This document shows positions 52,489 to 53,911 of a DNA stretch of 64,000 nt, in pieces; position 1 is the first letter of the stretch, and each line of letters begins with the position of its first letter. The notes under the pieces were generated by a model. It ran no database searches and had not been told where the DNA came from. It was given only the letters and a program-made list of their open reading frames with translations. Both the position numbers and the translations under genes were made by a program. The stretch comes from Escherichia phage Pu-Krd-SF3, in sequence record PQ249397. The stretch is one strand, 5' to 3'.

Positions 52489-52671
52489 ATGGAATTGGTA
52501 AAGGTAGTTTTTATGGGGTGGTTTAAGAATGAAAGCATGTTTACTAAAGAAATCACAATGATGAAAGATGACGTTCAATGGGCTACTACTCAATATGCTG
52601 AAGTTAATAAAGCATTAGTTAAAGCTTTCATTGATGACAAGAAAGTATGTGAAGTGGATTGCCGAGGATAA
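52489..52671 (+). CDS. dmd: Dmd, antitoxin against host RnlA/LsoA mRNA endoribonucleases
   Basis: 60-aa MELVKVVFMGWFKNESMFTKEITMMKDDVQWATTQYAEVNKALVKAFIDDKKVCEVDCRG, matching T4 Dmd. Confidence 0.9.
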   Translation: MELVKVVFMGWFKNESMFTKEITMMKDDVQWATTQYAEVNKALVKAFIDDKKVCEVDCRG

Positions 52672-52672
52672 T

Positions 52673-52930
52673 ATGCATATTGTTTTATTTAAACCTACTC
52701 CGTATAACGTCAGGAAAAATACACAATTCAAAGCACTTATTGCCGATACATGGGAATTGGTGTTAGATATTCCAGCAGAAGAAAGTCCTCCACTTGGTCG
52801 AGTGGAATTTATTAAGTTTGCTGTTCGTCCTACGAAGCGGCAGATTCGTCAGTGTAAAAGGTATTTTCGTAAGATCGTTAAGCTAGAGAAACAGTTTGTA
52901 ACATGTGATTACGCAAAAGTTTTAAAATAA
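52673..52930 (+). CDS. tifA: TifA-like protein (T4 61.4 position; ToxN inhibitor candidate)
   Basis: ATG 52673 after gaggataat; 85 aa, basic; directly downstream of dmd as for T4 tifA. Confidence 0.65.
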   Translation: MHIVLFKPTPYNVRKNTQFKALIADTWELVLDIPAEESPPLGRVEFIKFAVRPTKRQIRQCKRYFRKIVKLEKQFVTCDYAKVLK

Positions 52931-52932
52931 CT

Positions 52933-52962
52933 GTTTACTTTTATTGGAAATTGAGATACTAT
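52933..52962 (+). promoter_or_regulatory. T4-type early promoter (GTTTAC … gaTACTAT)
   Basis: ctGTTTACttttattggaaattgagaTACTATAta upstream of sp. Confidence 0.55.
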
Positions 52963-52991
52963 ATAAACATAAACTACTGAGGAGATTAATC

Positions 52992-53285
52992 ATGAAAAAA
53001 TTTGTTTTTGCTGCAATTTTTGCTTTAGCTTCTTGTGCTGCTCAGCCTGCTATGGCAGGCTATGATAAAGATTTGTGCGAATGGTCTATGACTGCGGATC
53101 AGACTGAGGTTGAAACTCAAATTGAAGCAGATATTATGAATATCGTTGAGCGTGACCGTCCTGAAATGAAAGCTGAAGTGCAAAAACAGCTTAAGTCTGG
53201 TGGTGTAATGCAGTATAATTATGTTCTGTATTGCGATAAAAACTTTAATAATAAAAATATCATCGCTGAAGTGGTAGGTGAATAA
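52992..53285 (+). CDS. sp: Spackle (Sp), periplasmic inhibitor of the gp5 tail lysozyme
   Basis: MKKFVFAAIFALASCAAQPAMAGYDKDLCEWSMTADQTEVE… signal peptide plus mature domain matching T4 Sp; 97 aa. Confidence 0.85.
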   Translation: MKKFVFAAIFALASCAAQPAMAGYDKDLCEWSMTADQTEVETQIEADIMNIVERDRPEMKAEVQKQLKSGGVMQYNYVLYCDKNFNNKNIIAEVVGE

Positions 53286-53911
53286 TGCTTTATCAAATGC
53301 ACAAGTGTAAAGACACGTACAAATATAAAGGTGCCCAGTGTTATATCATTAATCGTGAAAACGCAGGTCCAGGCCATTCGCATCAATCACGGTTTGTATT
53401 CGTTAAAAATAATGAAATTATAGCAGTTGCTAATTATATGCTTGTGACCAATGATGTTAATCCGGTGCCTTTCACATATGACAATCTAATGGACTTGGCA
53501 TATGATTATAATTGGTTTAATCATGACAATTTAGTTCATATTGAAGGCGTAGGATTTGACATCTCTTATTCTAGTTATTCGTTGTGCCCTATGAGCCGAG
53601 CTCATAAAGAGCCTGAATATTTTTCATTTCGTCGGCGTGTAGACTTTAAACACAGTACAGAGTATGTCGGTGGAATCTTTGTTAAAGATAATCGAATTAC
53701 TCGCATTATTTATCCTTTGGGCTTTGGTCAAAAAGATATTGATGTTGATTTAGACTTTACTGAAAACAGCATTAATCATATTGCTTCTGTGTATTTTGAT
53801 ATTGATCACAAAATTGTAATATGTGGATATGAATTACCATCCGAAAAACAGTCTAAAGTAAATGTTTCTATTGATGACCAAATTTTTAATGCTTTTATGA
53901 ATAGAGGTTAA
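53285..53911 (+). CDS. adfA: T4 61.2-position protein (AdfA-like, anti-DarT candidate)
   Basis: 208 aa between sp and 61, the position of T4 61.2; assignment by synteny and size. Confidence 0.6.
   Translation: MLYQMHKCKDTYKYKGAQCYIINRENAGPGHSHQSRFVFVKNNEIIAVANYMLVTNDVNPVPFTYDNLMDLAYDYNWFNHDNLVHIEGVGFDISYSSYSLCPMSRAHKEPEYFSFRRRVDFKHSTEYVGGIFVKDNRITRIIYPLGFGQKDIDVDLDFTENSINHIASVYFDIDHKIVICGYELPSEKQSKVNVSIDDQIFNAFMNRG

Follow-up and report, generated by a model that had tools for sequence, protein, structure and literature searches.

The closest described counterpart of the locus reported here is the early-gene block that phage T4 carries between its helicase gene 41 and its primase gene 61, within which dmd, tifA, and 61.2/adfA were proposed in 2022 as an "anti-TA (anti-toxin-antitoxin) island" (Srikant, Guegler, Laub; eLife e79549; PMC9391042). 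Dmd inhibits RnlA and LsoA (cited in PMC9391042; PDB 5HY3). Gene 61.4, since renamed tifA, inhibits ToxN through its protein of 85 amino acids (aa) and not through its mRNA (PMC9391042), and gene 61.2 is adfA, the anti-DarT factor (PMC9391042; PMC11825919). The remaining gene, sp, encodes Spackle, the mature form of which (G23-E97) makes a 1:1 complex with gp5's lysozyme domain and inhibits it, while the T4 endolysin is not inhibited (Shi et al. 2020, PMC7677548). We analyzed a stretch of 64,000 nucleotides (nt) from Escherichia phage Pu-Krd-SF3 (sequence record PQ249397), referred to in its whole length as the window, in which the same four genes occupy positions 52489 to 53911. Orthology of these genes to their T4 counterparts is close to certain, and we consider it very likely that the block as a whole is the orthologue of the T4 block and acts as published. 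The finding as such was known before: a close relative of T4 carries the T4 anti-TA island, and the genes, their mechanisms, and the island idea have all been published. An initial annotation, made from the sequence alone, had described a compact counter-defense island; the clustering it noticed is real, but the idea is not new, having appeared as the anti-TA island (PMC9391042). The only additions over T4 are allelic and incremental, namely, L41 in TifA, the loss of a GAAAU motif, I162S in AdfA, and a variable gene slot.

The block and the small gene on its right border are made up of the following features. Their identification is based on gene identity, synteny, intact reading frames, conserved residues, and promoter-like sequences, and all biochemical activities are extrapolated from published experiments with T4 and RB69.

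52489..52671, plus strand: dmd (61.5), 60 aa, inhibitor of the RnlA and LsoA RNase toxins, a protein antitoxin mimic
52673..52930, plus strand: tifA (61.4), 85 aa, RNA-binding protein that inhibits ToxN, a type III toxin
52992..53285, plus strand: sp (61.3), 97 aa, Spackle of the periplasm, which inhibits the tail lysozyme gp5 of superinfecting T-even phages
53285..53911, plus strand: adfA (61.2), 208 aa, anti-DarT factor A, a protein binding the ADP-ribosyltransferase toxin DarT1
53913..54077, plus strand: 61.1, 54 aa, conserved small early gene between adfA and primase gene 61

The four plus-strand open reading frames (ORFs) are present where the initial annotation had placed them, and the gene order 41-dmd-61.4-sp-61.2-61.1-61 is that of the annotated T4T record, with strand and spacing also in agreement. 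Upstream, the block is flanked by uvsX, 40, and 41 and downstream by 61.1 and primase gene 61; dmd, tifA, and adfA thus lie between replication genes 41 and 61, as do the members of the T4 anti-TA island. The junctions are tight: tifA starts 1 nt past the dmd stop behind a GAGGA Shine-Dalgarno sequence, with the same synteny as in T4, the adfA start overlaps the sp stop (TAATG), and the gaps from adfA to 61.1 and from 61.1 to 61 are of 1 to 2 nt. For sp we take the ATG at 52992 as the start, which follows a GAGGAG Shine-Dalgarno sequence; the mechanical ORF list runs longer, from a TTG at 52944.

Protein differences are given throughout in the direction T4 to window and come from global alignments against the T4T proteins. 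Dmd, for which an exact 60-aa match had been claimed, proved identical to T4 at both levels (60/60 aa and 183/183 nt). The 85-aa and 208-aa ORFs had been assigned to tifA and 61.2 by position and size; when the products beginning at 52673 and 53285 were aligned with T4 TifA and 61.2, the failure to align that had been named as contrary evidence did not occur, and both gave gapless end-to-end alignments, TifA with T4 gp61.4 at 82/85 residues (96.5%; F41L, E82K, and I83V) and the 208-aa protein with T4 gp61.2/AdfA at 205/208 (98.6%; R123H, I162S, and P190S). Spackle is identical at 94/97 residues (I5V and T8A, both in the signal peptide, and K53E), so that nine amino acid substitutions separate the window from T4 when summed over Dmd, TifA, Spackle, and AdfA. 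The roles stated in the initial annotation for Dmd, tifA, Sp, and 61.2 agree with the literature (PMC9391042, PMC11825919, PMC7677548, PDB 5HY3).

Family and structure searches led to the same assignments. Dmd matches Pfam PF17587 over its full length (156.9 bits against a cutoff of 27), TifA matches DUF7279 (PF23945; 71 bits), Spackle matches T4_Spackle (PF25676; 152.5 bits), and AdfA matches PF23813 (454 bits, residues 1-208/208). All four passed the Pfam gathering thresholds (Dmd, DUF7279, T4_Spackle, and AdfA), with E values from 7.5e-20 to 6e-137, which exclude chance for the four ORFs. Dmd also matches PDB entry 5hy3_B, "Antitoxin Dmd" (E value, 1.8e-37), and Spackle matches the solved structures PDB 6x6o, 6XC0, and 7cn6; no solved relative of either TifA or AdfA was found in a PDB sequence search with E values up to 1. 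An identical AdfA sequence carries the NCBI name "anti-DarT factor AdfA family protein." That the four are chance open frames, or mis-assigned look-alikes of T4 genes, is an explanation to which we give practically no weight: it is refuted by full-length identities of 96.5 to 100% to the T4 proteins, by E values down to 6e-137, and by conservation in hundreds of phage genomes.

The extent of that conservation was seen in a megablast search against 50,697 phage records, in which the region 52431-54079 had matches at identities of at least 80% in 630 records, nearly all of them Tequatrovirus, with Escherichia, Shigella, and Yersinia as hosts. The region is 100% identical in Escherichia phages Pu-Krd-SF1, SF2, SF4, SF6, and SF7, which originate from piglet feces in Russia, 99.8% identical in Pu-Krd-SF5, and 97.6% identical in T4. 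The window phage is a Tequatrovirus. The closest public records still call tifA and adfA "hypothetical protein," and the assignments made here are therefore of value for annotation. Compared with the T4 anti-TA island, the window has the same genes, order, strand, spacing, flanks (41 and 61), and promoter position upstream of dmd; it differs in TifA F41L, in AdfA I162S, and in having no GAAAU at tifA codons 82 and 83. DNA divergence from T4 is patchy, with dmd identical (0%), tifA 6.6% diverged, and the other genes 1.2 to 2.7% diverged, a pattern that suggests mosaic recombination under purifying selection.

Two promoter-like sequences accompany the block:

52431..52459, plus strand: T4-type early (sigma-70) promoter of the dmd-tifA bicistron, TTTACA-17 nt-TATAGT with a TG extension
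52934..52962, plus strand: probable second early promoter ahead of sp, TTTACT-17 nt-TACTAT, preceded by G (52933, GTTTAC)

The first has 10/12 consensus matches plus the TG in a consensus scan and lies directly after the gene 41 stop. In T4, the early promoter described for dmd-61.4 lies upstream of dmd (PMC9391042), and the corresponding sequence would be expected to be active in the window phage as well. A promoter downstream of tifA is mentioned for T4 (PMC9391042), and the element at 52934-52962 is probably its equivalent. A perfect 15-bp hairpin with a 6-nt loop (52437-52472, plus strand; dG, -18.9 kcal/mol; z = -4.1 against shuffles) also follows the gene 41 stop immediately; the spacer and the -10 element of the early promoter of dmd are inside it, and no U-run comes after it. 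For transcripts reading through from gene 41, this hairpin may be a 3'-end stabilizer or a barrier to processing. Rfam, scanned over 52000-54500 with E values up to 1, gave no known RNA family. Another, terminator-like hairpin at 52789-52806 has a weak T-tract and lies within the tifA coding sequence, and we treated it as a chance match.

If the block acts as its T4 counterpart does, the two early promoters would probably drive two tight units, dmd-tifA and sp-adfA(-61.1-61), so that the four proteins would be made within minutes of infection, before the shut-off of host transcription frees the toxins of toxin-antitoxin systems. Dmd would bind the RnlA and LsoA RNases and replace their labile antitoxins; neutralization of both by direct binding is highly probable, given the identity of Dmd with the protein of the published work. 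TifA together with RNA would bind ToxN and hold this RNase in an inactive ribonucleoprotein. T4 TifA binds both ToxN and RNA through a basic helix capped by Pro-Thr, trapping ToxN in a ribonucleoprotein (Guegler et al. 2023, PMC10853763), and the alignment of window, T4, and RB69 TifA shows R52, P53, T54, K55, R56, and R59 to be invariant, the cap and the basic helix being kept. From the work with T4 and RB69, we are confident that TifA here acts on ToxN as published. AdfA would bind DNA ADP-ribosyltransferases of the DarT type. Spackle would be exported to the periplasm and block gp5 lysozyme from T-even phages that arrive later, which would result in superinfection exclusion and in resistance to lysis from without. 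Its Sec signal peptide spans residues 1-22, which leaves a helical mature protein of 75 aa (G23-E97) with one disulfide; the window keeps each of the gp5 contacts named in PMC7677548 (S32-A35, Q37, N76, C29/C81, and the C-terminal tail), and K53E lies outside them. E53 is the common allele among relatives, and K53 of T4 is the exception. Inhibition of gp5 lysozyme as published for T4 is thus to be expected of this Spackle with little doubt.

Several points weigh against reading the block as a set of uniformly active counter-defense genes. The target of Spackle is competing phages, not host defense, and the block is in this respect functionally non-uniform. Native single-copy T4 TifA beats chromosomal, not plasmid-borne, toxIN (PMC9391042); T4 escaped plasmid-borne toxIN by tandem amplification of dmd-tifA (PMC9391042). 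The residue 41 variants assayed so far are F41S, F41H, H41F, and H41S (PMC10853763), a set that does not include L41. T4-type AdfA binds Escherichia coli DarT1 weakly and is dispensable for the DarTG1 resistance of T4 (PMC11825919). Finally, the second promoter candidate, with 8/12 matches, was read by eye and is below the scan threshold.

An alternative is that the genes are true orthologues but that part of the block is idle or tuned elsewhere, with AdfA and TifA serving as a reservoir of variants against toxin homologues other than DarTG1 and toxIN. TifA homologues do vary in potency and specificity, and the window has substitutions at TifA residue 41 and AdfA residue 162; changes at or near known specificity determinants may shift the range of toxin homologues neutralized. 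On the other hand, all frames are intact and the nucleotide differences from T4 are mostly synonymous, which implies purifying selection; AdfA retains the histidine that enables DarT1 binding; and T4 tifA knock-outs show an approximately 100-fold loss of plaquing on chromosomal toxIN (PMC9391042), which makes it likely that the near-identical window TifA is active. We therefore regard an idle or retuned block as unlikely, though as a possibility to be taken seriously, and favor a block that acts as published.

Residue 41 of TifA is the difference most open to interpretation. It lies on a loop at the predicted ToxN interface and tunes potency, with F41S and F41H strengthening T4 TifA (PMC10853763); it is F in T4, S in Thu1/R2, and H in RB69 (PMC10853763). 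Because position 41 is variable in the family, L41 is no argument against membership of the window protein in TifA. F41L results from a single T-to-C transition at 52793 (codon CTT instead of TTT). In short-peptide tblastn searches, the exact 32-aa context with L41 was found in 5/572 phage records, all of them Pu-Krd-SF isolates: Pu-Krd-SF1/2/4/6/7 have L41, and the sibling Pu-Krd-SF5 has F41. Phe occupies this position in 14/14 sampled relatives, and the nearest TifA proteins (WL-3, PhiZZ30, and F1) differ from the window at residue 41 only. An exact-sequence cluster look-up in a 15-billion-protein collection placed the exact L41 protein on 1 contig, compared with 215 contigs for the T4 allele, and showed S41 to be a second natural minority allele. 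These peptide counts and the look-up replaced a scan of IMG/VR with TifA, which gave 5 loci, too few for a census of the residue.

The other two TifA substitutions coincide with the loss of a toxin cleavage motif. The cleavage motif of ToxN is GAAAU (PMC10853763), and at 52916-52920 (tifA codons 82 and 83) the GAAAU of T4 has become AAAGU in the window through E82K/I83V. The tifA coding sequence is consequently without GAAAU, and a single GAAAU is left in the dmd-tifA unit, at 52549 inside dmd. According to the T4 authors, the site in tifA is dispensable for the function of T4 TifA (PMC9391042), and its loss would for this reason be at most a minor benefit. In all, tifA differs from T4 at 14 synonymous and 3 non-synonymous codons. 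We speculate, with little confidence, that F41L may have arisen recently in nature as an adaptive change at the ToxN interface, comparable to the lab-evolved F41S, altering potency or the range of ToxN homologues inhibited; if this were true, together with the GAAAU loss, the SF4/SF5 pair would constitute a natural near-isogenic test of arms-race tuning. The lead is a modest one: the only TifA residue for which tuning of ToxN inhibition is known has a rare variant here, a sibling isolate has the ancestral residue, and the L41/F41 pair would make a cheap natural experiment on the tuning of phage counter-defense proteins.

With respect to the start of TifA, we did not accept as the main product a 98-aa form from an in-frame ATG at 52634 (13 codons upstream, in the 3' end of dmd), since the start of the 85-aa form is served by a good Shine-Dalgarno sequence and experiments with T4 have validated this shorter product. 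The extended 98-aa frame is open in most relatives, and databases hold some versions of 93 to 98 aa.

In AdfA, the substitution of most note is also close to a specificity determinant. RB69 AdfA acquires DarT1 binding via R164H, a histidine at this position being needed both to bind and to neutralize DarT1, and T4 AdfA naturally has His (PMC11825919); H165 of the window aligns with R164 of RB69, and the DarT1-binding histidine is thus retained. Three residues upstream of H165, position 162 is S in the window, I in T4, and N in RB69, and the S162 context is a minority allele (20/486 records). The resistance of T4 to DarTG1 depends on AdfN (gp30.3), which is encoded elsewhere and removes ADP-ribose (PMC11825919), and T4 AdfA is dispensable for this reason. 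Binding and neutralization of DarT as published may apply to AdfA here, and we hold this with lower confidence against the model DarT1 than the corresponding expectations for Dmd, Spackle, and TifA, because of the weakness reported for the T4-type allele. AlphaFold2, run on the single AdfA sequence, gave a poor model (mean predicted local distance difference test score [pLDDT], 44.8; predicted template modeling score [pTM], 0.37), and no structural claim was taken from it. Nor do we claim an internal duplication in AdfA, the similarity being weak (29% identity over 59 residues; E value of 0.008 for a single comparison).

Gene content next to adfA bears on how the cluster as a whole should be understood. 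Of the phage records, 638 have TifA and 486 have AdfA; the smaller number for AdfA agrees with the report that some T-even phages, e.g., T2, are without adfA (PMC11825919). The slot between sp and 61.1 is occupied as follows:

adfA alone: T4, T6, and the window
118-aa ORF alone: WL-3, PhiZZ30, and HY01
adfA and the 118-aa ORF: RB32, F1, and one IMG/VR contig
neither adfA nor the 118-aa ORF: Sfk20 and RB3

The 118-aa ORF (L010:2125-2478 among the loci of relatives, and also in L009, L014, L011, and L012) has homology to AdfA in that protein's C-terminal half (37% identity; E value, 1e-8; phrog_4122), the half that holds the specificity histidine, and both proteins end in the same motif, SIDDQIFNAFMNRG. 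On this similarity, the 118-aa protein could be a minimal DarT-binding module. A further ORF of 84 aa, starting MMLVNREYQFKSEEDLEKF, is found in the tifA-sp interval of RB3-like phages (L015:1807-2061 and L008). The TifA of these phages has a different, shorter C terminus (80 aa, ending ...EKQLLMLVK).

This variability is what would be expected if there were no functional island at all and the cluster had formed as a side effect of a non-essential slot that tolerates recombination, is flanked by two essential replication genes, and collects unrelated small early genes. Close relatives do not all have the same genes between tifA and 61.1 (adfA, the 118-aa ORF, the 84-aa ORF in RB3, and imm/imm.1 in RB69), the target of Spackle is of a different kind, and the patchy DNA divergence suggests mosaic recombination. 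However, toxins of toxin-antitoxin systems are the targets of three of the four genes, a proportion that would be hard to obtain by chance, and dmd and tifA are cotranscribed and still adjacent in the distant RB69. The two views are moreover compatible, as anti-defense islands are generally such hotspots. We consider a cluster without any island function improbable, somewhat more so than an idle or retuned block, and retain the view of an orthologous block acting as published.

The comparison with RB69 (Mosigvirus) shows what has been kept over this longer distance: dmd is next to tifA and sp next to adfA, the block lies between 41 and 61, and the Pro-Thr motif and basic helix of TifA are conserved. 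In contrast, RB69 TifA is 57% identical, is without the C-terminal 15 residues, has H41, and inhibits ToxN more potently; RB69 AdfA, at 69% identity, carries R164 and stays inactive unless changed by R164H; and imm and imm.1 lie between tifA and sp, with additional ORFs around the block. The locus may also be likened to anti-CRISPR/anti-restriction islands, in which small early genes of unrelated folds occupy a variable slot and each product binds one immunity protein, although the targets here would be toxin-antitoxin toxins and a phage lysozyme. No aca-type regulator was seen with the block; this comparison draws on general knowledge and on the analogy in PMC9391042 only.

Gene 61.1, which borders the island and is outside the finding, encodes a protein identical to T4 gp61.1 at 52/54 residues (F4Y and N20S); it belongs to phrog_1823, a family of unknown function, and had no match in a Pfam scan. 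Three further features of the window differ from T4 or from a public record. The dam methyltransferase gene, which in T4 lies between dam.1 and 56, is absent from 55105-55895; a dam.1 homologue (55105-55305, minus strand) is directly followed by gene 56, encoding dCTPase, and RB69 is arranged alike. A 283-aa ORF (55870-56721, plus strand) stands at the T4 segF position and is annotated as a homing endonuclease in the Pu-Krd-SF4 record; it gave no Pfam match with E values up to 0.01 and may be a divergent or different mobile endonuclease. Lastly, uvsX (49475-50656) is an intact 393-aa ORF in the window and is split into two coding sequences by a frameshift in the public Pu-Krd-SF4 record (L003:3046-4226), which is probably a sequencing or assembly error, or else a real difference between the isolates.

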